A DNA stretch of 64,000 bases from a virus (taxonomy: Duplodnaviria; Caudoviricetes), in the IMG/VR virus record IMGVR_UViG_3300014205_000024, positions 1,462 to 65,461 of that record; one strand, 5' to 3'. Below, piece after piece: positions 16,501 to 55,993 of the stretch (position 1 is its first letter; each line of letters starts with the position of its first letter). The position numbers and the translations under genes are program-made. The notes beneath the pieces are model-generated. The model did no database searches. It had not been told where the DNA came from and saw nothing but the letters and a program-made list of their open reading frames with translations.

Positions 16501-19500
16501 TTCGGAGGTCTTTCAGCTTCCCACGATTGTTGGCATCGATGGGCCTGATGACTTCCTTCTCTTCCTTGAGGGTGCGAGGAACCGGAAGCTTGGCATACTG
16601 CCGCTTGGCCTTTTCGGCAACCCCCTGCATGAACGGTGAGTTCTTGATGTAGTTGCGCACCATGCGCTCCGCATTCCGGCGAAGGTTGTTGAGGCGCACC
16701 GTGGAGGCACGGGCGGCACGGTTGATCTGGAAAGCATACTGGGACATCGCATCCGTGGTGCTGGTGAAAGTCTTCTGGACGTTACCCGTTTTGTCTTCCA
16801 CTTGGACGATGTCCTGAACCAGATCGCCCCACTTGTCGATGTTGCTGGAGTGCAGAACGTCGAGCAGCCCGTCCTTAGTGTAACGCTTGGCGAACACTTC
16901 CCCGAGGTGGGCAACCAGTTCTTCATTCAGGGCAGCCGTGAATTCGGCCTCGCTGATCTTGGGGTTGTTGGCGCGGAGAACCCTGTCGTAGGTGTCCTTG
17001 AAGTGGTCGAAGTTGTAGTAGCCAAGCTGGTTGAAGAAGTCAGGCCCCGAACTCTGGATCAGTCCAGCCAGTGCGGTGACGTTGTCTCTGGTCATCAGCC
17101 CGTTTTCGAGCAAGCTGTTGAGTTGGCGATGGGTCGCTTCGTGTCCGTATTTCTGGGCGATGAAGTTGGAAATCTCCGACTTGATCGGGATAGCCAAAGC
17201 ATACCGGGCATTGATGAAGATCGTGCCGGATGCCGTATCGATGAACGCAGGTTGGACTGCGGCCTCGGGGCCAAACATCTTAACGATTTCCTCGGGCATG
17301 AGGATTTTGACGGACTTGGAGTTCTCGCCATACTTCTTTTCCACTTCCTTCTGGAGGATTTGGCGGCGGGTTTCGATCTCCTTTTTGACCTGCTCGCTGG
17401 TGGAAAGCTTCGTGCTGGAGGCTTTCATCAGTTCCCCAGCTTCGTTCTTCTGCTGCTCGGCAATCAGGTAAACCTTGTATGCCTGTTCGTAGGCGCGAGC
17501 CCGGTAGTCGGGCGATGCGGCGATGGCGTCAACGTCCTCTTGGAACCCGATGGTGTCTGGGTTGTCGGCATCGAAGTGTCCTTCCGGGTCAGCGGAGAAC
17601 TTGATGTCACGGGCCTTGGCTTCCATGGCCTTGATGGCTTCGCGGGTCGCATCGATCTCGTCGCGTGCGGCCTTGGCTTCCTTGCCCTTGAGATCGGAGG
17701 ATTCGTAGGCCACCTTCTGAGCGTTCAGCTTGGCCCTGAGTGCGGCCATGTCGGCGTTGAACTTCTTGATGGAGTTGGCAGTTTCATTCTCAGCCCCCGG
17801 CGCTTTGGCCTCGGGCTTGACTCCGAGTGCTTCCTGCAATCGCGAATAGCGAATGCCGTTGTTCCATGTCCAGAAGGCTTTCTTGCCGCCCTGCCTGTTG
17901 AATGAGGCCCCATCCTTTTCAGAGAACCCATAGGCACGGAGCGAGGTTTCCTGCCGTCCATGAATCTTATTCAGGTGCGACAAAAGTTTTTGCGTCGGCT
18001 TGTCGCCGGGTTCGCTTTCCCAGTCCTTGATCACCGGGAACCCGCTCTTACCCTTGGGTTCTTTAATGCCCTTTTCAGCCTTCACCTTGGTCTTCTTCTC
18101 GGGAACAACGGACTCAGGCGTCTTGGCCTCGGGCTTGCCTTCCGGGATTTCGATCTCATCCAGCTTGGCGTCCACTTGGGGAACAGCTTCATCCAGACCA
18201 CGGCTGATCTCAGACAAGGACATTTCTCCAATACCCTTATCCATCGCCTTGATGGTTTCGGGGCTGACCTGTGCGCCTTGGGCAACGTAGTTGCGCAGGG
18301 CTTGTTCACGGGCTCTGGCAGAAAGATCGCTCAGTGCTGCTGAACTGATCGCAGGATCACGGGAAACAAGTCGTTCAATCAGGTCGGTGTCGTCCTTGGC
18401 TGCGGGAATATCCTCGATGGATTTGATCCCGGCTGCGGCATGCTGGTTGGAAAGGGTGGCGTTGGCCTTGGCGATCTCGCTGACGCGCCATGCCTCGTCC
18501 GTCATTTCGACGATTTCCTCATTTTCCTGAGGGGTCGAAGAATCTTGGGCAATGGTGGTGTCCGTGGTGGCTACCTTGGCCTTTTTGACTTTGGCCACAG
18601 TCTGGGCGGCAGCCGCAGTGGACTCGGCAGCACTGACCTTGGCGCGTTCTTCGGCGGCGGCTTTGGCTTCGGGGCTCAGGAACTTCCCGGCCATGACGGC
18701 TTTGGTTTTGGCAGCAAACGAGGCGAGTTCAGCCGCATTGAAGTTGGCCATACCAATCCGCTTCCCGTCTGAGAACAGCTTGTTGGTTTCGCTGATCTTG
18801 GTCATCCCGCTCATGGGGCCGGATGCCATCAGGGTGAGCAGGTAGGTGTTGGTGTATTCATCCAAGTCGAACTTCTTATCTCGAACGACGCTGCCCGCAA
18901 TATCTCCTGCGGCTTGCGTGCTGAGTTCTTCGACGGGCTCCTTGATGAAGGTGTCCAGACCAACTTCTTTTGCCAGATAGGCAACACGACGGGCAATACC
19001 GGGGCCACCAACGGCTTTGATCTGTTCGATCAAGCCCTTGCCCTTGTTGAATTCACCGAATCGTCCCAAGAGTTTGTTCATGGCAACTGCGGTGATGGCC
19101 TGTGCTCCAGCTTCAATCTGCTTGGCTTTTTCGATCTCGTCAGGAGTCATGTCCGCATAGTTCGGATCGTTGGCATACATGCGCTCAAGCTGTGCGCGGT
19201 CACCACCATACTCTTGAAGTCCGGTGATGGCATACATCCCCCACTTGGTTCCGTTGATCAGGCCCGTGCGAATGGCCGGGATCATATTCCCGATCACGCC
19301 AACTCCCTGACCAATCAAGCTGGACTCCACATTGGGATTGATCCCTCTGTTGAAAATGTATTTCCCTGCCATGTCTGCGATCTCATTGGTCGCTTGGTCA
19401 ATCCGCTTGGGAGACTCGGCATACCGATCTGCTACCGCATCAAAGCCTTTGACTCGCACCAAACCAGATGTTGCGCCAGCAAGCAGGGATGCCGTGCCGC

Positions 19501-30376: not shown

Positions 30377-30757
30377 TTACTCCTTCACCTCGTCGTCGGG
30401 CTTTTCTTCGCCTTCCTCCGGGGTTTCTTTTTCAGCCTCTTGAAGGCCCTTTTCGATTTCAGATTCGTCATCGGCTTCCGGGTCTGCCACGGGGGCTTTC
30501 TTCTTTCCTTCACCAAAAGTGATGTCCAGAACTTCAAGTTCGATATTGGACTTGTTGTTCTTAATGTCCTTGCCGAGATTTTTTACCCGGTAGTTGATGG
30601 CGGCAGTTCCTTCCTCGGGCACATCGGCCAAGTCCGTCTTCACTCCATTGATGTAGAGGCACGGATACCATTCTTTTTCTTCACACACAGCAACCGTGCT
30701 GGGCGTGTCCTTTTCGGGAGTTTGTTTAAGATCGATCTTTTTCATAGAATTCCCCAT
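30377..30757 (-). CDS. hypothetical protein
   Basis: Tightly packed; acidic tail. Confidence 0.65.
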   Translation of the reverse strand: MGNSMKKIDLKQTPEKDTPSTVAVCEEKEWYPCLYINGVKTDLADVPEEGTAAINYRVKNLGKDIKNNKSNIELEVLDITFGEGKKKAPVADPEADDESEIEKGLQEAEKETPEEGEEKPDDEVKE

Positions 30758-31479
30758 TTGGTGGCTGCGATTGGTGCAATTAGAACACCCGCGCCATCGG
30801 TGTCCAAGACAAATGTAGAACCTCCCAGGATTGTATTGGGTGAGGTCACGCTGATTGTAGCGTTGTTTGATCCGAGCCTGACGATATTAAATCGCTTCCC
30901 GGTGAGGTAGCTGGAGATCAAGGAAAGCGTCAGAGTCACAGGACCAGAAGAAGTATCGATCACAATGCACTCATGCAGATCGGTAGCCGTGGTATCGGCT
31001 GTGATTGTAGCAATTGAAAGAACCGGGGAACTGGATGAACCGGGAGGGCCGGGATCGCCCTGTGGGCCAGAGGGAGCAACGACAAAGACTTCCCAATCCG
31101 ACGGATTGCTGCTCGGAAGTTTGTTGGTGTTATCGGTCAGGGCGATGTAAAGCGTGTTGCCAGTGGGTCCGATGCGGACAATGGAGCGTTCGAGGTAGGT
31201 CGTCCCTGAATTCCATTCTCCCAGCCAACTGATACCGAAGATGCCAATCAGCCGCAGCACATATTCCAGATACCCCTCACCCTCATGGCGGGGGAATCCG
31301 GCGGCCTCACTGGAAGTCAGCGTGGGAAATGTCCATGTGGCACGGCCATTGATGATCGACTTGATCACCTCGCCAAATAGGTTGAGCGTCAGGTTGTCGA
31401 GGGTGGATGCAACGGATTCCTCCGGGTTTGTCCGGTTACACGGGCCTCTGGAAGGTGTAGGGCATCCACATCCACTCAT
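30742..31479 (-). CDS. virion protein with CBM5/12-like carbohydrate-binding module
   Basis: WLGEWNSGTTY...IV...GNTLYIA...NKLP...DWE. Confidence 0.65.
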   Translation of the reverse strand: MSGCGCPTPSRGPCNRTNPEESVASTLDNLTLNLFGEVIKSIINGRATWTFPTLTSSEAAGFPRHEGEGYLEYVLRLIGIFGISWLGEWNSGTTYLERSIVRIGPTGNTLYIALTDNTNKLPSSNPSDWEVFVVAPSGPQGDPGPPGSSSSPVLSIATITADTTATDLHECIVIDTSSGPVTLTLSLISSYLTGKRFNIVRLGSNNATISVTSPNTILGGSTFVLDTDGAGVLIAPIAATKWGIL

Positions 31480-32117
31480 ACGATCTCCAAAATTTGTTTG
31501 AGGGCTTTGTCGGTCACATCGTCTTTGCGTCCAATCGGACGGGCTACTTGCTTGTGGCTGACGATCTTGCTCTTGGGGATGTTCCATTTGGCCATCCATG
31601 AGTGAATTTTTTCAACGGCACTGGCGAGTTCCTGAGGATTCAGGTCGCGGTCATTGGTATCACCGGAGAAGGCAATTCCGAGCGACATCGAGTTCACCCG
31701 CTTATCCCCGTTGTATTCTCCAACGCCAACGTGCCATGCGCGGAGTTCATCGGGAACCATGACCGTGCGCTCTCCGTTGTAGTCGAGGACGCAGTGGTAG
31801 CTTACTTGAGAGTTGTGGGACTTGACCGTGATCCAGTCGATGGTTCCAAGATAGGAACCGCAACTGTGGTGGACTACGATGATTGAAGGCGTCATTCCAC
31901 GGGCATCGCACCATGGAGAACGAACTGTCTTTTCCACGAATCTTTGGGTGGACGCTGATGGTGCTTGGCCGATAGGCGTAGGCACTTGCGCTGGTAGTGA
32001 AGCATTTGCTCTGGCGACCAGTCTATCAAACGCTCCGATGGTTTCGCTTCCGGGTTTCCCGTCGTCATCAACTCCGAGTTTGCGTTGGACATAAATTGTG
32101 AAGTCGGTGGGGTTCAT
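31476..32117 (-). CDS. endolysin, N-acetylmuramoyl-L-alanine amidase (Amidase_2)
   Basis: IVVHHS, SYHC, AWHVG, SLGIAF, IVSHKQV; N-terminal LGVDDDGKPG PG-binding motif. Confidence 0.9.
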   Translation of the reverse strand: MNPTDFTIYVQRKLGVDDDGKPGSETIGAFDRLVARANASLPAQVPTPIGQAPSASTQRFVEKTVRSPWCDARGMTPSIIVVHHSCGSYLGTIDWITVKSHNSQVSYHCVLDYNGERTVMVPDELRAWHVGVGEYNGDKRVNSMSLGIAFSGDTNDRDLNPQELASAVEKIHSWMAKWNIPKSKIVSHKQVARPIGRKDDVTDKALKQILEIV

Positions 32118-32362
32118 GGAATTTCGTTCTCCTGTTTCCACTGCAATACTCGGGGAGTCCAGAGTTTTGCCTTGGTGGCCCATTCGACAAGTTCTTTGGA
32201 AACAGTATAGGTTCCGTCATCATTGGCGGATTTGACCGGGTCTTTCCCGACCACAGGAAATGATGGAGTCGGCGGGAAGGGCGTAAGCTTGGGAGCATTG
32301 CTCTGCGTGCTTGCGCATCCCGCCAACAACATCAGGAATCCGAGTTGGATCAGTGTCCTCAT
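32114..32362 (-). CDS. outer-membrane lipoprotein, o-spanin-like
   Basis: Lipobox LLAGC, Pro-rich, in lysis cassette. Confidence 0.7.
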   Translation of the reverse strand: MRTLIQLGFLMLLAGCASTQSNAPKLTPFPPTPSFPVVGKDPVKSANDDGTYTVSKELVEWATKAKLWTPRVLQWKQENEIP

Positions 32363-32578
32363 TCAATCACCCCAGAGGTTGTTGAGATTTTGGACACCTT
32401 CCTTCGCCTTGGCGATGGCGGCTGCTACCTCGACATCGCTGGCTTGGGTTCGTGCGAGTTCCTTCTTCCTGTCCTGTTCACGCAACCATGCGCGGACTCC
32501 ACCGATAGCTTGCTCGGCAAAGCCGAGTATCTTTGGGAGAGCCGTGATGGCGTTAAGGGCTAGGATGAAGATGCTCAT
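32363..32578 (-). CDS. i-spanin/holin-like membrane protein
   Basis: N-terminal TM plus coiled coil. Confidence 0.5.
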   Translation of the reverse strand: MSIFILALNAITALPKILGFAEQAIGGVRAWLREQDRKKELARTQASDVEVAAAIAKAKEGVQNLNNLWGD

Positions 32579-32949
32579 TGTGTGATGGGTTTGGCTTTGA
32601 GGCTTCCGGCGAACAAGGACACTGCTTTGTATCCTTCGTAGAGGACTTCGATCAGGCTGGCGGCTTGCTCGACCACCACCTCGATCTTCTCTTGCGGGAT
32701 GTCAAATCGCGCCTTGAAGATTGCGACCAGTTCGGCCTTCTCGGCTGGGTCCAAATCGGCAAGTTCAGCGCGAATGTCGGTGACATTGGATACTGCGGAG
32801 AAGATGCCCATCGCTACGGCGGGAAGTCGGGCCAGAAGCCCCACATCGGCCATGTTGATTTTCCCATCTTCAAGTGCGGCACCAACGATATTCCCGAACT
32901 CTGCGAGAATTTCGACGGCTACTGTGATTTTTTCGATACCTTGGGTCAT
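32575..32949 (-). CDS. hypothetical protein (lysis region)
   Basis: GAAAGG RBS, amphipathic helices. Confidence 0.55.
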   Translation of the reverse strand: MTQGIEKITVAVEILAEFGNIVGAALEDGKINMADVGLLARLPAVAMGIFSAVSNVTDIRAELADLDPAEKAELVAIFKARFDIPQEKIEVVVEQAASLIEVLYEGYKAVSLFAGSLKAKPITQ

Positions 32950-33020
32950 AATTACCTTTCGTGTTTGTTTGGTTACTGTCGTTCAAATCCTGCTCTGAAA
33001 TTCTTTTTATTCAATCCTAA

Positions 33021-34247
33021 TTACGCCACCTTGGTGAACTGGGCATTGAGGTAGATTTCGTCGATGCCACCAGCATTGATGGCCTTCCCAAATCCAAAGC
33101 CGGAAACAGCATTGCTGGAATATTGGTCGATCCCAATGCTCTTGCTGGCAGCAATGGTGAACTTGCCTTCCATGTGGAGCGATCCCCCATTCCAATAGTC
33201 CGTGCTGAAAACAACCGTATGATCGAGTAAGGCATTTTGCCCATAGGCAATGACCACGCTATCCGTGAAGTTCCAAAGACGCAGTCTGGATTGGTCTGTT
33301 CCGCAACCGGATGCAGTCACCTTGAACTCGTAGGTTCCGGCAGCAAGAGTGACCTTGTTGGAGGATGCCGCCGAACAGGCCCCCCCGCCGTTTTCAATGG
33401 TGTGAGTAATCGGACGGGCCGCCCAGCCAGAGGCCGCATTGCCACCGTTGTTGTTAGCCGCAACCTTATGCTGGAGAAGAATATACAAACGTGTCGCCAG
33501 AGTAGTGGGAACCCATGCTGACCCATTCCAAGTGACCGTATCGCCTGTTGCTGCGGCACCTCCAGCAATGTCGGTGAGTGGGTGGGTGTGCGGGGATGGG
33601 GGATAGGCGGAATCTTTCCCGGTAATGGCAGACCATGGAAAGCTACTGGGAATCTCGATAGGGGGATAGACATAAATCTGGGTAGAGTTCAGCGCAACGG
33701 CAACCGCACGGGAATAAACCTCATTGGCTCCAGATGGCTTGGTGACGGTCAGAGTTCCGGCAGAGGACGAGGAAACGTAAAGCGGGGCTCCAATCGTGTA
33801 GGAGTTTGCCAGCGTCATGATCCCGGTAATGACCGTGGTAAACTTTCCGGCGTCTGCTGACTTCACTACACCCAAGATCGACTGGATGTTTGCCGCTGAG
33901 TTGGCCTGTGCAAGAACGTAGGACGATGCGCTGCGGCGAACAACGGCACCGGGGGCAAACGTATTAGAGGTCACTGTCTCAAAGGAAATCTCAGTCGGAT
34001 TGCTGTTGTCCGTCCGAAGCCACTGGGCGGCAGAGGTTGTGGCATCTACGCAGACCCACACCCGGTCATCCGTCAGGTTGATCCAGACCGAAAGAACCCC
34101 ATAGCCAGCCGTGTTGTCGTCGGTGACGGATGGATCGCTCGTTCCGTCGGTCTTGCACTTGATCGCCGTGGGCTTTCCGGCCCCGTTCATGAACAGGAGG
34201 CCAGTGAGTGCGGAAGAACCAGGCAGGAGATGGAGGGGAAGGCTCAT
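33021..34247 (-). CDS. modular fibre / receptor-binding protein
   Basis: DDNTAGY..SVWIN module, cement-like module, HTH-box (SPHTHPLTDI), C-terminal beta-sandwich head. Confidence 0.7.
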   Translation of the reverse strand: MSLPLHLLPGSSALTGLLFMNGAGKPTAIKCKTDGTSDPSVTDDNTAGYGVLSVWINLTDDRVWVCVDATTSAAQWLRTDNSNPTEISFETVTSNTFAPGAVVRRSASSYVLAQANSAANIQSILGVVKSADAGKFTTVITGIMTLANSYTIGAPLYVSSSSAGTLTVTKPSGANEVYSRAVAVALNSTQIYVYPPIEIPSSFPWSAITGKDSAYPPSPHTHPLTDIAGGAAATGDTVTWNGSAWVPTTLATRLYILLQHKVAANNNGGNAASGWAARPITHTIENGGGACSAASSNKVTLAAGTYEFKVTASGCGTDQSRLRLWNFTDSVVIAYGQNALLDHTVVFSTDYWNGGSLHMEGKFTIAASKSIGIDQYSSNAVSGFGFGKAINAGGIDEIYLNAQFTKVA

Positions 34248-34627
34248 GAATTGTTCTCACGTTTTGCTCTATCCAGCAGGACAGCTACCACGCTGGCATT
34301 TTTGTTTTGGGCTTCGGTATTTTTATTTGTGGCATCCTTGAGTTCCTTGATTGACTCATTCAGTTCCACACGCACACGGTGGCTCTCTTTGGCGTCCGCC
34401 TCAAGTAAAAGAATGCGCTCATGGTGCGCAGCGATATTCTGATCAAGCGAGTCCTTGAACTGCTGGCGGCTCTCTTCTTCCTCAGATTTATGTTTGTCGA
34501 ACTTTGACTTCCGAAGATAAAAATTATCCAGAGCAAACAAGACTCCTATTCCGATAAATCCCAATACTGACATAATCGAAAAAATTTCAGTCCAGCTATC
34601 GGGCGATGCAAATAGGGTGGCAATCAT
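34244..34627 (-). CDS. membrane protein with coiled coil (holin-like)
   Basis: N-terminal TM, AT-richer than neighbours. Confidence 0.55.
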   Translation of the reverse strand: MIATLFASPDSWTEIFSIMSVLGFIGIGVLFALDNFYLRKSKFDKHKSEEEESRQQFKDSLDQNIAAHHERILLLEADAKESHRVRVELNESIKELKDATNKNTEAQNKNASVVAVLLDRAKRENNS

Positions 34628-34842
34628 AATGCGTCTTTCTTTTGCGGTTCAATTTTTTTAAGCCCAAGTTGTTCAATGCGGGCCTCCGCCGCAGCTTTGG
34701 AGGCAAACTCTTCCAACTCCCATATAGTGACTGTGACGCCAGTTCCCTCAAACAGGCCAATCAGATCAGTGCCGTCATAGACCAACCTCCAGGATTTACC
34801 TGCTGCGGATTTATGGACTGGTTTATTGGGTATTGTTGTCAT
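34624..34842 (-). CDS. hypothetical protein
   Basis: ATGA overlaps both sides. Confidence 0.6.
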   Translation of the reverse strand: MTTIPNKPVHKSAAGKSWRLVYDGTDLIGLFEGTGVTVTIWELEEFASKAAAEARIEQLGLKKIEPQKKDAL

Positions 34843-35894
34843 ATTGCGGTAATGGTTGGCAGGGGCGCGGAGCCTGAAATCGCCACCCAGGTAGTCACCA
34901 GGTCGGGAGTGTCCCCAAATCCACCCTCATAATAGGCTATCAAAGATGTTGTATTATATATGAGCCATGCATCCCCACTCCAAATAATGTGATAGTCAAC
35001 TCCGCCGGAATTGGCGGCGTATGTAGGAGTCCCAAAACCGCTAAATCCCACGAGCACAAAATCAAGATTTACGGCGCTTGTGCCCGCGCCGCTGACGCGC
35101 ATATTCTGCGGCGGCGTCATTGTCAGTGTGCAGCCTAGTGACAATGCCTGACCATAGGCTATCACGCCGCCACCCGTGGGGGGATTTGGACTAGTGCAGG
35201 ACAAAACGCAACCATTATCGTTGGCAACCAAAAAATTAAGCAGATCGTTAATGCATTCTGATGTGTAGTTAGGCGCGTCCAGAAATAGCGTGAATAACAT
35301 AGAGCTTGTGTCTTGTAGGTAGTTGTGGTGAGGCTCATTGGTAATAATCGTCGCGGCAGCGGCCGATGGATAAATGACGATACCGCCCCCGACGTGCCCA
35401 AGGGTAATCTGCATGGTCAAATCAGAGTGAGCTAGGAGCAGGTTCTGGCCTACTGTCAAAACCTCCAATATAATGTTCTCAACATTGCTCGCAGGCATAA
35501 TTAGTAGCCCACCCGTAACTATCAGACGCAATGGTACCGACGGATATCCGGTGGGATTTGGCATAAACGCTAACTCGCCCTCGCGGCGGTAGGGCAACCC
35601 ACCAACCTCACAATCGGCCGCAAAAACTTCTTGTGGGATGGAGTTGTAGGGATCAGGATCAGGACCGGGTCCCGGATCTGGAGTAATGGCGGCTTCCTTG
35701 AAAAGTTCAACCAACTTCCGCAGGGCCATGTTGATCGACATCGATGGAGCAATGGCGTTTGGATCATTTGTTCCAGCTACTCCAAGGAGGCGGCGCACGG
35801 CTACCTGATCATCCATGCTGGGGGCAATGGCGTCGGGGTTTGATGTCCCCGCAATACCAAGGAGGCGGCGTAGGAAGGTATTGGTTTCGCTCAT
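34839..35894 (-). CDS. putative capsid decoration/head-fibre protein
   Basis: Directly after MCP; two 25-aa N-terminal repeats, PG/PD linker, beta-rich C-terminal domains. Confidence 0.6.
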   Translation of the reverse strand: MSETNTFLRRLLGIAGTSNPDAIAPSMDDQVAVRRLLGVAGTNDPNAIAPSMSINMALRKLVELFKEAAITPDPGPGPDPDPYNSIPQEVFAADCEVGGLPYRREGELAFMPNPTGYPSVPLRLIVTGGLLIMPASNVENIILEVLTVGQNLLLAHSDLTMQITLGHVGGGIVIYPSAAAATIITNEPHHNYLQDTSSMLFTLFLDAPNYTSECINDLLNFLVANDNGCVLSCTSPNPPTGGGVIAYGQALSLGCTLTMTPPQNMRVSGAGTSAVNLDFVLVGFSGFGTPTYAANSGGVDYHIIWSGDAWLIYNTTSLIAYYEGGFGDTPDLVTTWVAISGSAPLPTITAI

Positions 35895-35958
35895 AATCTT
35901 GGATTAGTTCAAAGGGACCCCCTCGTAGAGAGGGGGCCGCATGAACCAATCAGAGATT
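35895..35958 (-). terminator. long intergenic stem-loop after MCP (terminator/processing site)
   Basis: GACCCCCTC/GAGGGGGCC inner stem and GATTAGTTCA/TGAACCAATC outer stem. Confidence 0.6.
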
Positions 35959-37174
35959 ACAGACCAACTCCACCGTAGGAGAAGTCGCAATCCGAGAACC
36001 CGAGGTCCGTGTTGCAACGCTTCACCAGAACCGGGACAATCGCGTGCGGACGAACCGGGCGATAGGCGCGGGTGATCTGGTAGAGGTGCTGGCCGAAGTC
36101 ACCATACAAGTTGCAATCCCAGTCGCGCTGAGCGAACCATTCCAGTTCCCCGGAATACATCTGGGGCGCGAACTTGAAGGTGCCTTCACCCACATAGCGT
36201 TCGGGAGCCAGACGCTCGAAGCTGTCGGCACCGACCACGAAGATCACTTCGTAGGGGGCGGCAACCCAAGCGGGGTTGGTGCGGCTGGCAACACCGTTGG
36301 TGACGCTGACCGCGATTTCAGGCTCAACCAGAGCCAGATCGCCGTCTTCGTCGAACCCGGTGCAGCGCAGAGGCTGGGGGTCAACACCAAACGAGAAGCC
36401 CCGATAGGGTCCCTCGAAGTGGTAGCCTTGGAGGCTCTTGCCGCCGAGGTTGTAGGAACCGGAGGCGAGGTAGTTCAGGTCTTCCTTCACTCCCAGTTCG
36501 TTGCGGAAGGCTTCAATGCTGTCATCGGAACCGATCACACGATACATCGTGCCCTTGTCGGACTCGTAGGGGGCCACCGAAAGATCTTCGCGGAGGAAGC
36601 CGCCAAGCTTGCGGAGGGCAGCAAAGGTCATGGCACCCGTAGGCAACGCATCTTTGAACTGCACATCGACCTGCTGGGCATCGCCCGTGATCAACTCGTC
36701 AAAGCCGTAGCCCTTGGCCGCGACCATCTTGACGCCAGAACGCTTGTAGAGCGTGTGGCGAATGTCCGAGTTGGTGATTTTAACAATCCCCTTTTGGAGG
36801 GATTCCTGAGCCCGGCGGTAGGAATCTTTGAACGCGGTGCGGGAGGTCTTCACGCAAACGCGGGGACCCTGGCCACGGAGGGTTCCGAGGCGGTAGGTAT
36901 ATTCGGTTGAACCGACTTGATCGCTCGATCCACCCGTTCCGCAGGTTTCGGTATCATTGACGAATACCGGAGCGGCGAGTGAAGTGGCAAGAACGGCCTG
37001 TTCCTGCACAACAGAGCGGACCACATCGGAGTCGAGTCCGAAGGTGCCACCCTTGAGGATGTTGGTGAAAGGGGTGCTCTTGGTGAGAACTTCACCAATT
37101 TTGCCCTGAATACGGTTGGTGTCTTTAGCGGCGAAATCATTCGCTGCGGCTAGACTGATACATTCGGCTGCCAT
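35957..37174 (-). CDS. major capsid protein
   Basis: 405 aa, after scaffold; long structured leader, stem-loop downstream; strong codon bias. Confidence 0.8.
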   Translation of the reverse strand: MAAECISLAAANDFAAKDTNRIQGKIGEVLTKSTPFTNILKGGTFGLDSDVVRSVVQEQAVLATSLAAPVFVNDTETCGTGGSSDQVGSTEYTYRLGTLRGQGPRVCVKTSRTAFKDSYRRAQESLQKGIVKITNSDIRHTLYKRSGVKMVAAKGYGFDELITGDAQQVDVQFKDALPTGAMTFAALRKLGGFLREDLSVAPYESDKGTMYRVIGSDDSIEAFRNELGVKEDLNYLASGSYNLGGKSLQGYHFEGPYRGFSFGVDPQPLRCTGFDEDGDLALVEPEIAVSVTNGVASRTNPAWVAAPYEVIFVVGADSFERLAPERYVGEGTFKFAPQMYSGELEWFAQRDWDCNLYGDFGQHLYQITRAYRPVRPHAIVPVLVKRCNTDLGFSDCDFSYGGVGL

Positions 37175-48294: not shown

Positions 48295-49689
48295 ATGCCA
48301 GAATCAGATAATGCATTACACGAAGTTAGAACATACTTGGAACCCCAATGCCAGGGTGACACAATGACCAGAAGGGTGACAACTTGTGGAGTCTTCAACT
48401 ACCAAGGCAACAGCTTTGGAACCACGCTTTATGGTGGGTTGGTGGTTGGTGTTTTGGCTCAAACAAATGATCTGCCACAGGAATCCACCGTTGCTGCTCT
48501 ACGCAGAGAAATCGAGAATGCCATACTGGGTTCGCGCCAATTCGGAATGCCTATTCGCTTGCAGGTTGGAGAGAATAGAAATGTTCTGATCGTGCACAAT
48601 CCCGAGCCTCTTGTAGCTCCAGAAAGCCGAGAACAACTTATGGGATTCTGCGCGCACTACCGAGTGCTGGCAGAAATTTCCAATGAACAAGTTCTTGTTT
48701 ACTCGGAGGCAGACTTGTCCAGCCGTTGTGTATCTTTTATTAAGAAGCAGACAGTCGATGGAGTATATTATGTTGAGGCAACCATCAAAGTCTTCGACCG
48801 TCATGACTGGGAAACCATGTATCTGTTGAGTCTGCGCAATACCTACGATCAGGTCGGACCTAATGGACGCTTCGACTATCCAACTCCGCCATGGATGACT
48901 TGGAGAGGAAGCGGATCAAGCCATATTCCTCCTACTCCCGTCCCCTATTGCGAGCCCAACATCGATCCGCTCAGATATGATCGTGAACTGTCCATGACTA
49001 GTCAGACTCCGGCGTTTGTATTTGCATTGCGCCAGACCACACTCTGCGAATACTGGCCCAAGCGTGATAACTTCGACTTGGCCCATGGACTTAATCAAAT
49101 TGATCGGCCCACTTCGGAGGTGATTAGGGAAGCCCTTGATAGCATGCTGGAATTGCCCGAGGCTTTGTGTGTTGCCAGGACACGGATCAACAACAGTAAG
49201 TTTCCATGGAGAGCACTGGATCGCAAGAAGTTTACCTTCTGCGATACTCCGTCCTATTTGTTCCCGCATGAAAAAGATGGCGTCACACACATGATTCCCG
49301 TGATCCCCATAGGAAGTTGGCAGCTTCACTTGGTTGCGGTGTGGTTTAATGAGAACTACGATTCTCAGATACAACCTTCCGGCTATGAGTTTTGCGAGGC
49401 TACAATGGGCAGTGAACCAGGTGGTGATTCGTGCGCGGTGGTCCAGTCTGAATTTATCCAAAGAGATGTTGAGCGGGTTGAGCGGCAGATGCAGCAAAAC
49501 CGCGCAGACGCTGCCTCATTGTTGTCGGAAGCCGCCCACCGTGAAGCGGTTATGAGAGCACAGACCCATGGACTTGATCCCGATAGTCGATTCAATATCC
49601 AGAGCGTTTGCGACGAATCGGCCTATCTAACAGCCCAAGAACTAAGTCCCCTTGACCGTGTAGCCAGAACATTTCGGAGGTTTGTATGA
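48295..49689 (+). CDS. hypothetical protein
   Basis: 464-aa ORF, no recognised motif. Confidence 0.65.
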   Translation: MPESDNALHEVRTYLEPQCQGDTMTRRVTTCGVFNYQGNSFGTTLYGGLVVGVLAQTNDLPQESTVAALRREIENAILGSRQFGMPIRLQVGENRNVLIVHNPEPLVAPESREQLMGFCAHYRVLAEISNEQVLVYSEADLSSRCVSFIKKQTVDGVYYVEATIKVFDRHDWETMYLLSLRNTYDQVGPNGRFDYPTPPWMTWRGSGSSHIPPTPVPYCEPNIDPLRYDRELSMTSQTPAFVFALRQTTLCEYWPKRDNFDLAHGLNQIDRPTSEVIREALDSMLELPEALCVARTRINNSKFPWRALDRKKFTFCDTPSYLFPHEKDGVTHMIPVIPIGSWQLHLVAVWFNENYDSQIQPSGYEFCEATMGSEPGGDSCAVVQSEFIQRDVERVERQMQQNRADAASLLSEAAHREAVMRAQTHGLDPDSRFNIQSVCDESAYLTAQELSPLDRVARTFRRFV

Positions 49690-50330
49690 CAACGGTTATT
49701 CTTTCAGGCCACGATGCCAATATGGCTGAACTGGCGGGACTCTGTCTTCCATCAAAGCTTCGGTTCTCCGAGGCCATTGGTGCGCCCCTGCGCGTCATGA
49801 CCCCCGAGTTCTACGAAGACTTCCCCGATGAACATCCCTCGTTCACCAAGCTGCGCATCATCAAGAAGCACATGGAGGAATTCGAGCGGGTCATCTGGCT
49901 GGACGCAGATAGCATCATCACCAACCCGGAAGCCTTTCCGCATATCCGCGACGAAGCGTGTCTGACGGTTTCCATGGACTATCCCATCGAGGACCAACGA
50001 CCGAAGTTCAACAACTGGTCCGCTGGCAACATGGTCTGGAACAGCAACTTCTGGTCGATCCAGTTCATCCAAATCTCATTGGACTTTGTCATGTATAAGA
50101 ACAGGCCCTACTGGGATCAGAATGCCATGCAGCACACGCTGACCAAAATCCCCAGCTATCGTCCGTTCATCGACATCCTTGATCCCAACAAACTCAACGC
50201 CGTCCATCCCGAGGTCGGCTCCATCCAAGCTGCCAAGTGGCAGAAAGGAGACTTCCTCGTTCACCTGACAGGCATGACCCACGCATCCCGCGAAGTCATT
50301 GCCCGTCTTAACTATTCGGAGTATCTGTGA
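49686..50330 (+). CDS. GT34-like (GMA12/MNN10) glycosyltransferase
   Basis: FTKL, IWLDAD, SAGNM, WDQNA, WQKGDFLVHLTG. Confidence 0.85.
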   Translation: MTTVILSGHDANMAELAGLCLPSKLRFSEAIGAPLRVMTPEFYEDFPDEHPSFTKLRIIKKHMEEFERVIWLDADSIITNPEAFPHIRDEACLTVSMDYPIEDQRPKFNNWSAGNMVWNSNFWSIQFIQISLDFVMYKNRPYWDQNAMQHTLTKIPSYRPFIDILDPNKLNAVHPEVGSIQAAKWQKGDFLVHLTGMTHASREVIARLNYSEYL

Positions 50331-50853: not shown

Positions 50854-51161
50854 AACTCATAGAATTCAAAGAGCAGACCACTGTGTTCGCCAAAGACCAG
50901 AAACAATATAACCCACTCCCATGCCATAAATTCGAGTCCAATACACTCGAAGGAATTCATGAGGGGCGCATTGCCTGTGTCTGGAAGCTTACCTTCATTG
51001 AGCGCATCAAGGTTCTATTCACCGGAAAAATCTGGCATCAGATACTTACGTTCAACAATCCTCTTCAACCACAGCTTCTCACAGTTGAAAAGCCAGACAT
51101 GACTAAGTCCTTGAGTATTCACCGAGTCATGAAAATTCCATATGGAGCACCCAAATCATGA
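50850..51161 (+). CDS. hypothetical protein
   Basis: AAGGAG RBS; FAKDQ..Y.PLP...WKLTF.ER motif. Confidence 0.65.
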
Positions 51162-51442
51162 ACAGACCCAACGGAGCATTCGGAAACGGCAAACCCAAAT
51201 CCTTTCCAGAGGGATACTACGAACGAGCAGAGGCCGCACATCAACTCGGCCTCGCCAAGTTCCAACTCCTGATCACTGGATCAATCTCCGAACCAACAGC
51301 ACATCGCCTTGGAGTCCTAGCCCAGCACCCGCTTCTCAAGGATGAACCATGGGCCATTGCCATTAACTCTGCACTCACACCGGAACCCACCCATGAACCC
51401 GACCCTGCAACGGATCAAACAGCACCAGACCCCCAAGCCTGA
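51158..51442 (+). CDS. hypothetical protein
   Basis: ATGA overlap. Confidence 0.5.
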   Translation: MNRPNGAFGNGKPKSFPEGYYERAEAAHQLGLAKFQLLITGSISEPTAHRLGVLAQHPLLKDEPWAIAINSALTPEPTHEPDPATDQTAPDPQA

Positions 51443-51608
51443 TCGCATTCCTCCCGGTTACTTCACCATCAGGCAGTGGTCGGACTCTTGGGGTCTGTCC
51501 CCATCCTATGTCCGTCACATCCTGCTTGCGGAGGTTCGCGCCAAACGCTGGACTCGCAAGAAATTCCGCACCCCCAGACTGACCAACTTCTTCAAGGAGA
51601 ACCCATGA
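51393..51608 (+). CDS. small HTH DNA-binding protein
   Basis: YFTIRQWSDSWGLSPSYVR. Confidence 0.55.
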   Translation: MNPTLQRIKQHQTPKPDRIPPGYFTIRQWSDSWGLSPSYVRHILLAEVRAKRWTRKKFRTPRLTNFFKENP

Positions 51609-51841
51609 CCCTTATCGAATTCCAAGCCAAGATGTCCGACCTCAACCAATGGGCGCAGCACGGCTGCACCGACAGCAACTGCCGCATTGAAAGGACACCG
51701 GGCATGGCGACCAACGGGGGCTGCCAATGCAGTCCGAGAGCATTCGCGGAACACCTCTTGGCTCTGGCATGCGAACTCGACAAGGGAGGCAAATATGCCA
51801 GATGGGAACCATACCCCCCCACACCCAAGGAGAACCCATGA
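51593..51841 (+). repeat. 16-bp direct repeat CAAGGAGAACCCATGA (51593-51608, 51826-51841)
   Basis: Exact copies containing RBS plus overlapping start/stop. Confidence 0.85.
51605..51841 (+). CDS. Cys-rich small protein
   Basis: HGCTDSNC...GMATNGGCQC. Confidence 0.6.
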   Translation: MTLIEFQAKMSDLNQWAQHGCTDSNCRIERTPGMATNGGCQCSPRAFAEHLLALACELDKGGKYARWEPYPPTPKENP

Positions 51842-52170
51842 AGACCAAAGGCCAAGAACTTCTCGAAGCGATCCGCGCCAACCCCAAGGACGCTATCGCC
51901 CTCCAGTGTGCCATCAACCTCGCCCGTGAGGCCCTCCGTGTCCACGACTACACCCAAGACCTCGACACCCTTGCCACCCGCCTTCTCGACGAAACCGGAC
52001 TCTCCCTCGACGACCTCCGCTCCAAGTCCCGATCCAACCACCACGCCATCGAAGCCCGTAAACAATTCTGCCGCATCGCCCACGCCCTCCACATCCCCAT
52101 CCCCACCATCGCCAAGTTCATCAACCGGAAACGCACCTCCGTTTACAAAACGGTATCCCCACTATCATAG
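51838..52170 (+). CDS. protein with DnaA domain-IV-like HTH
   Basis: LRSKSR...ARKQF...IAKFINRKRTSV. Confidence 0.6.
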   Translation: MKTKGQELLEAIRANPKDAIALQCAINLAREALRVHDYTQDLDTLATRLLDETGLSLDDLRSKSRSNHHAIEARKQFCRIAHALHIPIPTIAKFINRKRTSVYKTVSPLS

Positions 52171-52177
52171 CCAACAC

Positions 52178-52435
52178 ATGAATGAAAAAGAATACAAGCT
52201 GGCCAATGCCAAGGTTCTCGTCCGCGAACAAGAATCCAGAGTTCGTGAGGCCCAACGCAACCTCGATGAGGGTTACAAAAACGGAGAGGCCAAAATAGCC
52301 ATGGCCAAGTCTGATGCCGAACGTGACTATACGCACCTCAAAGAAGAACTCGAACGCGCCAAAATGCAACTGGAGCGCGAAAAAAATTGGGTTTTAAACT
52401 GCGAGGCCGACCTACAACGTGGCTACGAAGCATAA
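52178..52435 (+). CDS. coiled-coil hypothetical protein
   Basis: Heptad-rich. Confidence 0.6.
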   Translation: MNEKEYKLANAKVLVREQESRVREAQRNLDEGYKNGEAKIAMAKSDAERDYTHLKEELERAKMQLEREKNWVLNCEADLQRGYEA

Positions 52436-52442
52436 TACCTCT

Positions 52443-52928
52443 ATGACCGGACTCATTGCCATCCACAAGGACGCCATCCCCACCATCACTGCCATGCTCC
52501 CAGTCTGGCAGGCCACCCTCGATCACATCATCTGGGTCGTCAACCCACACGAAGTCTATCCCCGCTGGTTTCCCGACGGTCCCTACTTCATCCCCGATGG
52601 CTCCGGTCGCGACGGCCTCTCTTCCATCCAGAAACTCCACTCCGTCCTCCGCTATGCCCACACCCTCAATACCGACATCGCCCTCCTCGAATACGACTCC
52701 ACTCTCCTGACCAAGGCCCCCCACGCCCCTATCCCCAAAGCCTCCCTCTTCGGCTCCCAACTCTTCACCGCCAACCCCATCATGGGCGACAAGGGCTATC
52801 TCGCCCGTCGGTTCATGCACTCCCCATACCTCCTTTCCCATACCGCCATCGGCATCATCCTCGAAACCCTCGACCAGTGGCAGACCCCAGATGGTGGATA
52901 CTACTGGATCGAGAAGGGTATGGGTGAC
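52443..52928 (+). pseudogene. glycosyltransferase-like gene, 5' part (interrupted by cassettes)
   Basis: IALLEYDS DxD-like motif; C-ending codon bias stops near 52900. Confidence 0.6.
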
Positions 52929-52976
52929 GTATGCGTCAGCGACGGGCCTGGTTGGTCGTTGACCATGAAAGGAACT

Positions 52977-53297
52977 ATGCAAAACACAATAAACGAAGAT
53001 CTGGCAAAGCTGCCTACTGAGGAAAAAAGGAAATTCATGGACGCCTTCGCGGAAGGACTGGCCCGCGCTGGAATGCGGCGCGGATCAGCAAGGTCGATAA
53101 GTCTACGTGGTAGGACGCTGCCGAAGCTGGAATGCGGCATCTGCGGAACAATCCATACCGTCGAAGAGGTGCTAGAAAAGCAGAAATGCACTGTCTGCGA
53201 AAACGCAGGGCCAGAAAGCGAATGGAATGAATATCCGCCCAACAATAAACTGACCCAATCGGCTGATGATACAGCCAAACCAAAGGAGCAAAAGTGA
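52977..53297 (+). CDS. cassette 1 ORF, zinc-ribbon protein
   Basis: AAAGGA RBS; CGIC...CTVC; ends PN-NKLT in attC arm. Confidence 0.65.
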   Translation: MQNTINEDLAKLPTEEKRKFMDAFAEGLARAGMRRGSARSISLRGRTLPKLECGICGTIHTVEEVLEKQKCTVCENAGPESEWNEYPPNNKLTQSADDTAKPKEQK

Positions 53298-53361
53298 GTG
53301 ACGAAATGAAAGACAAACCGCAGGACGTTATAGCCGATTGTGGTCAAGCGGCTGGTTCGGA
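53237..53361 (-). mobile_element. attC site 1
   Basis: Minus strand: R'' TCCGAAC, L'' CTTGACC, CAATCGGCT/AGCCGATTG stem, L' GGTCAG, R' GTTGGGC. Confidence 0.85.
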
Positions 53362-53650
53362 ATTGTGGCTGCACATGGTCAATAACCATGGAATCCATCT
53401 GCTCGATTCAGAGGTCAATGACCTTAAGTGGGTGGCGCACCGCGAAATAATGGAGGAAAAAAACTTGATCGCCAACTCTGCGGCGAGAGAAATCGCGGTG
53501 CTGAGGGATGCTCTACGGACTGCAAAGAAAGACGCGCACAGTCCGGGCGTGTATGAAGCCATCGCCTATGCGCTAGGAGAAGCGGACGACATTGATGATA
53601 TTCCGAACGCAAAGCTCTCCCATGAGGCGGGCGGAGAGGAGCCACAATGA
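53294..53650 (+). CDS. cassette 2 ORF, hypothetical
   Basis: GTGA overlap inside attC1 loop; ends PN-AKLS in attC2. Confidence 0.65.
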   Translation: MSDEMKDKPQDVIADCGQAAGSELWLHMVNNHGIHLLDSEVNDLKWVAHREIMEEKNLIANSAAREIAVLRDALRTAKKDAHSPGVYEAIAYALGEADDIDDIPNAKLSHEAGGEEPQ

Positions 53651-53699
53651 CAGCTAGTGCGTCTCCGCCCGCCGAATTGGGAGCAGCGCCTTGTTCGCC
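53602..53699 (-). mobile_element. attC site 2
   Basis: Minus strand: R'' GGCGAAC, L'' CTGCTCCCA (extrahelical G), 12-bp stem, L' TGGGAGAG, R' GTTCGGA. Confidence 0.88.
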
Positions 53700-53922
53700 G
53701 TTTTTGGCCGACTTCAATGCGGCGCGTGTGATTTGGGGCCGCGCCGACGCATGGCGCGGAGAGGAACCGACGCTCGCACAGCGCGCCTGGAATGGCCTGC
53801 AATACTCCGCCGCCAAAACCGATCAATGGGGACCGCCCGAGCAGATGGCCCTCGAATCTGCGCAGGTCGAATTTGAGGCCCGGCTACGCCTCGCGTTTTC
53901 GGCGAACGCTGGCTCTGCCTAG
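53647..53922 (+). CDS. cassette 3 ORF, hypothetical
   Basis: GGAG RBS and ATGA overlap inside attC2 loop. Confidence 0.6.
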   Translation: MTASASPPAELGAAPCSPFLADFNAARVIWGRADAWRGEEPTLAQRAWNGLQYSAAKTDQWGPPEQMALESAQVEFEARLRLAFSANAGSA

Positions 53923-54116
53923 CCGCCGCTACCTCAGGCTTTACCCTCCGCTCCGTCGGCATCTCCCATGTCTCCAATACCATCCCCGACACCCAAACCC
54001 TCCACCACCTTCTCCAGACCCTCCCCCTCTCCATTCACGGCGTCAAAAACCCCTCCTTCTCCCCCATCCTCCTTGACTTCATCAAGGCCAACGACTACCT
54101 TCCATCTGTGGGGTAG
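53907..54116 (+). pseudogene. glycosyltransferase-like gene, 3' part
   Basis: RWLCLAAATSG...SNT...IHGVKT...; same frame and same NNC codon bias as 5' part; no own start codon. Confidence 0.65.
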
Positions 54117-54160
54117 ATCAGTCAGGCAGATCGTCGGGTTCAAATCCCGCCCCCGCAACC
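54107..54160 (+). pseudogene. tRNA-fMet-derived element lacking the anticodon arm
   Basis: 7-bp acceptor stem, GATC/GATC D-stem, CGGG-TTCAAAT-CCCG T-arm, ends GCAACC. Confidence 0.7.
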
Positions 54161-54168
54161 CTTTCAAC

Positions 54169-54243
54169 AAGTCTGTGGTGTAGCTGGTAGCACGGAAGCC
54201 TCCAAAACTTCCTGCCTCGGTTCGATCCCGAGCGGACTTGCCA
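54169..54243 (+). tRNA. trnW: tRNA-Trp (CCA)
   Basis: Full cloverleaf, loop CTCCAAA, GGTTCGATCC, encoded CCA. Confidence 0.92.
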
Positions 54244-54829
54244 ACTTCGGGCCGCATGCTCCCATCCCCAAAAAGCATGACCGGGTCACAGAACCCGCTT
54301 TCATATGGTATCCTCCTAGGCCCCTCGGCAGCCCTCAAAGCTTCCGGGGGGTCTTTCTTTCCCGGTATGGGATTTCCAACCACGCCAGACCCAACCTACC
54401 CCTACGACACCACGACCCCTGAGAGCACTCCCACTTGTCAACTTCCCCTCCATCCTTGCAGAATTTTTAAGTGTCCAAAATTTATAAGCCATTCTCCACC
54501 AACGGCGGCGGCCTCCTCCCCTGCGTTTCCGACTTTCTGTGCTGCAAAAAACCAGCAAGGCACATCAGTTTGGAGGGGAACCCTACAATTCTCTTAGGGT
54601 CAACCTGCGCGGCAGACCCCGGCCATACCCCATAGGGGCCGGGTCGGGCCAGACTTTTCCATGCCCACTTCCCGGCTTTCCCCTGTCTCCAGCCTCCGCC
54701 ATTGAAGGAAAGAAACCTCCATGGCTTATACTTTGTGGAAGGAACGAGAGAGACAGGACAGTGTCCCCAATGGATGCTGCCCAGTGGTAAATGCCTCTGT
54801 CTGAGTCCCTTCCATAGGAGTATCAACAC

Positions 54830-55213
54830 ATGAACATCAACTACACCACGCTGGCCAAGGCCATCCTCAAGGAACAGGCCAAGTCCGCACCCGTCGAAAC
54901 CACCAAAGTCAGCCGTAAGGCCAGCACCAAGGTCACCAAGAAGTCCTCCAAGGCAAACGACTATGTCAAGAACATGGTTGCCGCTGCCCATCCCGCTGAC
55001 CTCAGCGTCCTCCGCGAAGTCCTCGGCTTGCCTTCCGGCAAGGTCACCCTCGGCTCCCTCGTCGGCAAGACCTTCGCCATGACCCCGGCTGGCTCCACCG
55101 CCTACCGGGCCGCGAAGTGGAGCGTCCGCCGATTGTTGGCCGATCATGGCCTTAAGTTCGAGTGGGCGATCAAGGCCGATAAGGCCAAGGTCACCCTGAC
55201 CGCCGCTTCCTGA
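54830..55213 (+). CDS. basic K/A-rich protein (histone-like N-terminus)
   Basis: AGGAG RBS, strong codon bias. Confidence 0.75.
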   Translation: MNINYTTLAKAILKEQAKSAPVETTKVSRKASTKVTKKSSKANDYVKNMVAAAHPADLSVLREVLGLPSGKVTLGSLVGKTFAMTPAGSTAYRAAKWSVRRLLADHGLKFEWAIKADKAKVTLTAAS

Positions 55214-55215
55214 GC

Positions 55216-55785
55216 CCCGGCCAGCGTATCGGAAAGGCTCGGAGTCCCATCCTCCCAGCCTTATGCACTATCGAGTGCCGCTTCCCTGCTGGGGAGGCGT
55301 CCTTCGGCAGTGAGATTCACTCGCAACAAGATGGTTGAGTGAGGATCACTTCCCCCTTGTCCTTGAGGATAAGCGGCTTACGGCAGGAAGGTGCTTTGGT
55401 AGCGCTGGATGATGGGATGTGTCTGTGCCTATGGGTAGGACCATACCATGCTGCCGTAAGATCGCCTTGTCCTGAGTCTAGAGCCTTAACGGGTTCTGGA
55501 AAGGGAAGGGAAAGACTGGTCGGTGGTGTGTTGTCTCCCTAGTGGGGAATCTCATGCTGCCGACAGACCTTGTCTTAGAAGTCTGGCCAATACCATGGAG
55601 AAAGGGATTGGCTAGACGGGTGGGAACAGGTGCTGTGTCTAGCTATAGGCAACCATCATAGGCTGCCCGTGCTGGAATCTGGTGCTTGTTCCTGATGGGT
55701 AAGGGTTTAGCCAGAACTGTGCCTTGGGGCATGGGGAAGGCGGGAAGTGTGTCCATCCCTATTGGGAACATCGTATGCTGCCGGG
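55216..55785 (+). ncRNA. candidate ~570-nt structured non-coding RNA
   Basis: No credible ORF; three nested long-range stems and many local hairpins. Confidence 0.55.
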
Positions 55786-55795
55786 AAAGGGAAGA

Positions 55796-55993
55796 ATGAA
55801 TGGAATCACGCTGTGTAGGATAATTATAGTAGTGGGACTTATTGGCCTTATTTTGGCCGCGAACTATAGCGCAAAGCTACCTCAAAACCATGTGACACCA
55901 TACAAGATAATGGTTGTAACCATTGATGGAGAGGACTACATCGTGGCAAAAAGTTGGTATGGAATAGGCATCTGTCCGAAGGTGGCCAAATGA
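55796..55993 (+). CDS. small exported/membrane protein
   Basis: N-terminal hydrophobic segment. Confidence 0.55.
   Translation: MNGITLCRIIIVVGLIGLILAANYSAKLPQNHVTPYKIMVVTIDGEDYIVAKSWYGIGICPKVAK

Follow-up and report, generated by a model that had tools for sequence, protein, structure and literature searches.

Probable integron-type gene cassettes in a phage genome without recombinase, and related cassettes in an inverted format

Can a phage that encodes no recombinase of its own carry integron gene cassettes? The question is raised by three small, tightly packed open reading frames (ORF1-ORF3) at about 53 kb of a 64,000-nucleotide stretch of DNA, referred to as the window, which covers positions 1,462 to 65,461 of the IMG/VR virus record IMGVR_UViG_3300014205_000024 (Duplodnaviria; Caudoviricetes). 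An earlier prediction made from the sequence alone (the original prediction) had described this locus as an array of integron cassettes captured inside a phage gene, with no integrase in the window. Our analysis indicates that the region from about 53243 to 53906 is likely to represent two complete integron-type gene cassettes, that is, a cluster of attC sites lacking an integron integrase (CALIN) in a recombinase-less phage. Site structure, membership of the sites in a wider family, their polarity and, in relatives, mosaicism at AA|C of the site boxes were observed directly. The window lies within a 65,461-bp record with direct terminal repeats that is judged complete, and searches for TIGR02249, PF00589, PF00239 and PF01797 gave no match anywhere in this 65.5-kb genome. 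The absence of an integrase was confirmed in this way beyond the window, and the phage is without tyrosine, serine or Y1 recombinase in its whole genome.

Architecture and detection of the two sites

Sites A and B (Table 1) lie on the same strand, 240 nt apart. In site A the box GCCCAAC is followed by a 6-nt spacer, a stem of 15 bp in all around a 67-nt loop, a second 6-nt spacer and the box GTTCGGA; the stem includes a perfect inner stem of 9 bp and is interrupted by two bulged bases on its 3′ arm, A16 and T21 as counted from the 3′ end. Site B is composed of TCCGAAC, a 5-nt spacer, a 9-bp L stem, a small internal loop, a perfect 12-bp stem, a 5-nt spacer and GTTCGCC; the L stem carries one bulged C on its 3′ arm, at position 16. 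The originally predicted coordinates and inner stems (9 and 12 bp) were confirmed for both. Each hairpin has an unpaired central spacer of 5-6 nt, an L box and bulges on one arm only, and the extrahelical bases of both sites are confined to the 3′ arm of the plus strand. The AAC and GTT triplets of the 7-nt boxes are present at both sites, the RYYYAAC / GTTRRRY consensus is partly matched beyond the triplets, and the two boxes within each site pair at 5/7 positions.

The boxes also connect each site to the next crossover. GTTCGGA (53355) and TCCGAAC (53602) are exactly complementary, with a match that extends to 9/9, and the same holds for GTTCGCC (53693) and GGCGAAC (53901), here extending to 8/8; in both complete cassettes the first bases are complementary at 7/7 positions to the inverse core of the cassette's own attC. 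This R′′/R′ complementarity, which proved exact at both links as originally described, had been taken as the footprint of the integron integrase IntI, and the same pattern was reproduced at 12/12 links of a true Vibrio integron and, at 7/7 positions, at 19/24 links across four related arrays. With at least two attC sites less than 4 kb apart and no integrase nearby, the locus has the composition of a CALIN.

An attC-architecture scanner that asks for AAC...GTT 45-150 nt apart with at least 5/7 box positions pairing, and for a stem of at least 9 bp that starts 4-7 nt inside the box and has at most two single bulges, returned only sites A and B from the 64 kb, compared to 0.32 matches per 64 kb in Markov shuffles. 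No other inverted repeat in the window is as strong as that of site B, whose single-stranded DNA fold is markedly stable (-27.9 kcal/mol, z = -4.4). Perfect 9-bp inverted repeats and CGAAC/GTTCG pentamers are each expected about twice per kb, and site A has no energy signal, so that ordinary repeats and pentamers might have been assembled into an attC picture by chance. This explanation is hardly credible and already contradicted, given that the scanner's 2/2 matches stand side by side, that an independent model matches at the exact coordinates, and that the same architecture is found with covariation in dozens of sites elsewhere.

The independent model, a covariance model termed R2, was built from seven aligned sites and refined on 18 sites of four related loci (L004, L005, L007 and L008), and contains no window sequence. 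RNAalifold on a raw MAFFT alignment of 12 sites found no structure because of misalignment; covariation was therefore assessed with a hand-set structure on seven well-aligned sites, where 20 pairs were 90.7% paired, 11 of them with compensatory change, as compared to 21-44% in slid controls. R2 recovered site B with exact ends at 29.0 bits (E 1.1e-6 within 50-58 kb; E 2.3e-5 in a 344-kb search), its matches were confined to the plus strand, and nothing other than the two sites scored within 50-58 kb. It also matched 16 true attCs of a Vibrio anguillarum chromosomal integron (E 4e-7 to 1e-3), all of them opposite to the strand of the cassette genes and hence on the attC bottom strand. This control integron, which is carried in phage MK672802 and named in PMC9892861, was likewise recovered by the scanner; on its gene strand the bulges fall on the 5′ arm, on that of the window and L005 sites they fall on the 3′ arm. 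The polarity given originally, with the attC top strand on the minus strand of the window, was right according to both the strand of the R2 matches and the arm of the bulges. A model built from Vibrio attCs only (R3) in turn detected three sites in L005 and L007, representing two distinct cassettes (E 0.0025-0.026). The extrahelical bases of the L005 sites are G16 and T23 from the 3′ end, those of the window sites C16 (B) and A16 and T21 (A); for attCaadA7, G16/T23 have been described (PMC5027507). R2 scores, scanner and chain complementarity together support the view that integron-type attC sites bound the cassettes. Rfam at gathering thresholds gave tRNA-Trp as the only known RNA in the window and no attC family match, which also ruled out a group I or II intron or another known RNA.

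Table 1. Coordinates of the array, its boundaries and the related integrase-bearing locus. Positions refer to the window unless a locus is named.
Feature	Position	Strand	Remarks
attC site A	53237..53361	+ (its bottom strand)	from sequence, scanner and model R2
Site A boxes	5′ GCCCAAC, 3′ GTTCGGA	+	from sequence
attC site B	53602..53699	+ (its bottom strand)	from scanner, fold and model R2
Site B boxes	5′ TCCGAAC, 3′ GTTCGCC	+	from sequence
Cassette 2	53243..53607	- (attC top strand)	site A and body of ORF2; box complementarity 7/7
Cassette 2 crossover points	53242|53243 and 53607|53608		AA|C; position inferred from relatives
Cassette 1	53608..53906	- (attC top strand)	site B and body of ORF3; box complementarity 7/7
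Right-hand crossover box GGCGAAC	53901..53907	+	junction 53906|53907; AAC is an in-frame Asn codon of ORF3
ORF1	52965..53297	+	110 aa from ATG 52965; CxxC...CxxC zinc-ribbon motif
ORF2	53294..53650	+	118 aa; GTG start after AAGGAG ribosome-binding site
ORF3	53647..53922	+	91 aa; conserved small-protein family
Upstream phage ORF (host ORF)	52419..52928	+	C-rich coding strand; in frame into ORF1; codon-usage frame +3 favoured
Left-boundary zone	52865..52930		composition change; AAC 52865-67; in-frame GAC 52926-28
GTTGGTC box	52951..52957	+	6/7 complementary to site A GCCCAAC; same codon phase as other 3′ boxes
C-rich stretch after array	53907..54116	+	open in 52419 frame; codon score weak, equal on both strands; no family
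L041 integron	L041:56-6585 (IMGVR_UViG_3300017707_001413, contig 30441-36970)		chained attCs, attI-like box, integrase

Related arrays and cassette exchange

Arrays of the same site family were found on seven IMG/VR contigs by a pattern scan followed by R2; the scan itself gave 62 matches, which is about the chance expectation for 15 fixed bases, and only the seven loci with model matches were counted. The related arrays on phage contigs hold 7-12 sites. L005 and L006 share the order DnaC-like loader, array, Sf6-type small terminase and T7-type portal, while L004 carries ERF and YqaJ genes and L008 a DnaB-like gene. No homologues were found for ORF1 and ORF2, which are orphans, so that only ORF3 could be traced elsewhere. 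Its family (about 90-120 aa) includes 13 homologues, down to E 2e-29, from phage contigs and one bacterial metagenome-assembled genome (loci L002-L010). Homology of ORF3 at the DNA level to five other contexts covers 53682-53908 and ends at CGAA|C (53906|53907). An eight-site array of the same layout in L005 has the ORF3 homologue as its final gene, and each of its 3′ boxes is complementary to the 5′ box of the site that follows.

L005 (1640-4617) and L007 (1994-4689) are close relatives, podovirus-like contigs that differ in cassette content and order. They have two cassettes in common, with 95-98% identity and at different array positions, and all four breakpoints lie at the AAC of 5′ boxes on both sides. 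The pair is a clean natural example of cassette shuffling. Crossover mosaicism at AA|C was found in these relatives, but not in the lineage of the phage studied here. In both contigs the DnaC-like loader and the array are separated by a conserved 90-aa ORF (L005:1220-1492, L007:1249-1521).

One locus, L041, is a complete integron with the same site family next to an integron integrase. L041 contains 11 chained sites with all links at 7/7 (the model search listed 12) and R2 scores of 28-44 bits. After the last site comes an attI-like GGCTAAC, complementary to the final 3′ box, and 30 nt further on there is an ORF with a score of 274.9 bits for the integron integrase family TIGR02249 (cut-off 265). 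This gene is directed away from the attI-like box, as is usual in classical integrons, by which the polarity of the sites is fixed independently. Among the L041 cassettes are C5 and N6 DNA methyltransferase domains, which share the strand of the integrase gene, and the cassette genes read toward intI. L041 is viral by its IMG/VR label, and no hallmark phage gene was detected in the 20 kb examined (Pfam/PHROGs, 10 large ORFs). For two further, GC-rich arrays (L050 and L033) the ORF strand was not decidable from open frames.

These data are consistent with a process in which IntI would have put the cassettes into this phage and in which they might still be mobile. Each cassette would consist of one attC site and one small gene, with the plus strand as the recombinogenic bottom strand. 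As single-stranded DNA, this strand would fold into a hairpin of R box, unpaired spacer and L box in which the base 16 nt from the 3′ end is extrahelical; the folded bottom strand would be cut at AA|C in the 5′ box. Because the phage encodes no recombinase, any exchange would require an integron integrase acting in trans, from either the host or a co-resident element, for example the integrase-bearing relative L041. The idea that a host integron was the source did not find support: ORF3 relatives occur in phage contigs and a single bacterial metagenome-assembled genome, and the cassette format is not classical.

Several results weigh against integron cassettes at this locus. The R boxes read GTTCGNN and not GTTRRRY. 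R2 detected site A only marginally, although with exact ends (15.0 bits, E 0.015), and R3 was not significant in the window (8.4 bits, E 1, for site B and no match for site A). Site A folds no better than shuffled sequence (z = -0.8); the single-strand folding check that had been suggested with the original prediction stood for site B and failed for site A. Insertion by IntI should leave a complete attC at the far left end, and none was found there by the models or the scanner. The phage itself has no integrase, and no excised or empty form was seen in one run, represented by contigs only. Box sequences fall in conserved codons of ORF3 (Cys-Ser-Pro and Ser-Ala-Asn), so that part of that one complementarity could come from protein constraint. 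Finally, the left end of the ORF3 homology (53682, distant copies) does not fit a whole cassette as the unit of exchange.

This left break, close to a 3′ box, would also agree with modules being shuffled by general or phage homologous recombination of the Erf/exonuclease type at short boundaries, as is the case for lambdoid 'linkers' or the promoter early stem-loops (PeSL) of T4. Related arrays are located directly behind ERF/YqaJ, DnaC-like or DnaB-like genes, and a conserved CTTGTTCG motif in the 3′ flank of the sites might provide micro-homology. However, recombination at micro-homology would not create cassette-specific box complementarity, hold a bulged base at a fixed position or put the breaks at one phosphodiester of the 5′ box. 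The sites are moreover recognised by a model that also matches true attCs, and with strict strand polarity. We regard homologous recombination as a very unlikely explanation of the array.

Gene orientation and reading frame in the cassettes

If the units are read as integron cassettes, their genes stand on the unexpected strand. ORF1-ORF3 are encoded on the plus strand and tile via ATGA/GTGA overlaps. The loop of site A holds the stop codon of ORF1, a ribosome-binding site and the start of ORF2, and the loop of site B holds the stop codon of ORF2, in which this gene ends, a ribosome-binding site and the ATG of ORF3; the last four codons and the stop of ORF3 lie past the crossover. A classical cassette gene is co-oriented with the attC top strand and located upstream of its attC, and all three ORFs of the window depart from this arrangement. 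In the window, L005, L007 and L041 alike, the attC bottom strand encodes the genes, and the attC loops contain start codons together with ribosome-binding sites; ORF3 is a conserved protein on the plus strand, in agreement with the bottom-strand placement. At 23/28 sites, where one third would be expected, the 5′-box AAC shares the reading frame of the upstream gene; these include all three boxes of the window, of which GGCGAAC at 53901 was read directly from the sequence. With AAC in frame and the stop codon in the loop, the final 10-20 codons of a gene and its stop come from the cassette that follows it, and with the crossover in an in-frame Asn codon, cassette exchange at AA|C keeps all reading frames. 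Any cassette could accordingly be inserted or removed without breaking the polycistronic reading of its neighbours, and cassettes would fit without a seam into a dense polycistronic operon whose direction is toward attI and intI.

Both loops combine the stop codon of one gene with a good ribosome-binding site and the start of the next gene, which might alternatively indicate that the hairpins are mRNA elements for translational coupling or processing in a small phage operon, with the likeness to attC being a relic or a convergence. It would fit with such a role that several family members keep a G-T(U) pair which exists on the sense strand only, that the genome is without recombinase, and that no variant forms occur in the contigs of the landfill run described below. 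An mRNA function does not explain, however, why each 3′ box is complementary to the 5′ box that follows, why homology between L005 and L007 breaks at AA|C and why the site family occurs next to an integron integrase. We consider this explanation unlikely, while noting that an RNA role and a recombination role of the hairpins are not mutually exclusive.

Integron cassettes in phages are not without precedent. CALINs have been published for Tetrasphaera phage TJE1 (Qi et al. 2023, PMC9892861), and published phage attCs were recombined by IntI1 (PMC9892861). Like the window, TJE1 contains at least two attCs, no integrase and small accessory genes, and its attCs show the same chain of box complementarity as the window sites. 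They are, however, only 50-60 nt long, compared to 98-125 nt in the window, and have the classical orientation, standing behind the genes on the coding strand and being bulged on the 5′ arm, whereas the genes of the window lie on the attC bottom strand with start codons in the attC loop. R2 with default filters gave no match on the TJE1 genome. The Vibrio anguillarum integron (phage Va_90-11-286_p16, MK672802) is closer to the window in terms of its sites: attCs of about 100-130 nt with R box, spacer and L box, an extrahelical base at position 16, perfect chain complementarity and detection by a common covariance model. It differs in that its genes are mostly on the top strand, directed away from intI and without overlap with the next attC, in its GTTAKNN boxes (GTTCGNN in the window) and in having its integrase in cis.

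L041 shares with the window the site family, bottom-strand genes, starts in the loops and an AAC that is mostly in frame, but unlike the window it possesses its own TIGR02249-class integrase, an attI-like box and the C5/N6 DNA methyltransferase cassettes. The 'inverted integrase' integrons of Treponema (PMC3607928) resemble L041 insofar as integrase and cassette genes run in the same direction. In Treponema, intI is transcribed toward attI and the classical relation of gene and attC is kept (PMC3607928), whereas in L041 intI is transcribed away from attI and the genes are inverted relative to attC. Insertion of cassettes by IntI at secondary sites, termed attG (Loot et al., bioRxiv 10.1101/2022.09.11.507474), would agree with cassettes outside an integron platform and with the right junction at AAC (equivalent to GTT), which fits the GWT target. 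Unlike the window, whose left end is without one, the attG route leaves a complete distal attC, and no empty target allele is known for the window.

No description of a bottom-strand, translation-embedded cassette format was found in the literature searched, and the format appears to be undescribed. Being unlike both Vibrio and TJE1, it points to a phage-associated cassette pool. We lean, by a narrow margin of confidence, towards the view that a separate cassette format is in use in phages and in at least one integrase-bearing element, with the gene on the bottom strand, stop codon, ribosome-binding site and start codon in the loop and the crossover within an Asn codon that is in frame. Such a format would amount to a form of integron suited to the way in which phage genes are organised, and phages without a recombinase, the present one among them, would draw on the pool in trans. 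Phage-borne integron cassettes have already been documented as a route for accessory genes between phages and bacteria (PMC9892861). New here is an attC cassette family that circulates among diverse phage backbones and turns the classical cassette inside out: its recombination sites contain translation signals, and its crossover preserves the reading frame. Such a format would explain how very small phage genes could be exchanged as units without intergenic space. Sites A and B together with the L041 integrase provide concrete material for asking whether IntI enzymes act on phage genomes during infection.

Left end of the array and genomic surroundings

A shift in composition and an open reading frame would fit an array that interrupts a phage gene. 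The plus strand around the array is coding and unusually C-rich, and the sign of the GC skew (G versus C) flips between about 52.9 and 53.92 kb. Two-state likelihood placed the left change point at about 52889 (range about 52865-52915) and the right one between 53850 and 53920. The frame of ORF1 is open from the upstream ORF that begins at 52419, and the stretch 53907-54116 could be either the C-terminal part of a split gene or non-coding DNA. The originally proposed capture inside a phage gene would agree with composition and open frame, but no empty-site relative shows the split; an empty-site allele was not found because the flanking ORF has no relative in the collections searched. For the host ORF these were IMG/VR (pattern search) and a set of 5.8 billion proteins, and a 464-aa neighbouring gene was equally without relatives in the IMG/VR pattern search.

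There are three candidate left junctions. The first, 52866|52867, lies at the sole AAC to the left of ORF1 (52865-67) and fits the composition, with a poor frame. The second, 52927|52928, lies at an in-frame GA|C, and the upstream gene would then end in ...GD-AGSA-stop. The third, 52928|52929, which is that of the original prediction, restores the 52419 frame through to 54116.

A third, decayed site, which had been predicted to start at the left junction, did not withstand closer analysis. An interrupted stem does exist there, with its 5′ arm at 52937-48 and its 3′ arm, which had been misplaced, at 53060-53070. As an attC it was rejected: it has no AAC/GTT boxes, carries its bulge on the wrong arm and was detected neither by the model nor by the scanner. 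Two further candidates, 52861-52957 with a CTCGACCAGT / ACTGGATCGAG stem and 52904-52957, failed box and spacer geometry as well as the models, and no attC was detected in the left-boundary zone (52865-52930). GTTGGTC at 52951 is a possible 3′ box of a lost third attC, its 6/7 match not being significant alone (estimated chance about 0.2, about once in five tries), and the 300-370 bases to the left of the two cassettes are possibly the remains of a third cassette.

Assembly and gene content of the surroundings were also considered. A 12.3-kb Logan contig from a landfill metagenome covers both junctions with zero differences and no alternative joint, and counts weakly against a chimeric assembly; this single run, available as contigs only, is the probable source of the DNA, and the contig is not independent. 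Proteins of the window are mostly without family, and Pfam and PHROGs gave nothing for the host ORF, ORF1, ORF2 or ORF3. ORF1 showed weak rubredoxin-like matches only. The ESM Atlas neighbours of the host ORF are small viral or glycosyltransferase-like proteins of 177-222 aa; as a lead only, they indicate that it may be a small glycosyltransferase-like gene. AlphaFold2 on its 170-aa N-terminal part without alignment was unusable (predicted local distance difference test, pLDDT, 35). A gene similar to GT34/nucleotide-diphospho-sugar transferases is located 2 kb upstream (49686-50330, Pfam E 6e-9), and together with the possible glycosyltransferase-like ORF at 52419 it suggests a glycosylation module. 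The halves of the host ORF were also compared to this gene as potential paralogues, with none convincing.

The C-rich coding strand extends over 51150-52900 and 53920-55200, with a GC skew down to -0.48 that is unusual for a sense strand, and encodes proteins of no family with a high content of Pro, Ser, Thr, Leu and His. The tRNA-Trp (CCA) is found 3′ of the array at 54169-54243 and is preceded by a short tRNA-like stretch (54107-54243 for both) without an ARAGORN or Rfam call. Further downstream, the ORF-poor region 55216-55800 contains three related hairpin units, for example 55377-55392 pairing with 55445-55460, whose 3′ strands all end in CATGCTGCCG-like sequences; they gave no match in Rfam and may be structured RNA. 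On the minus strand, a single ORF of 3423 aa (10538-20809) presumably encodes a giant virion or ejection protein.

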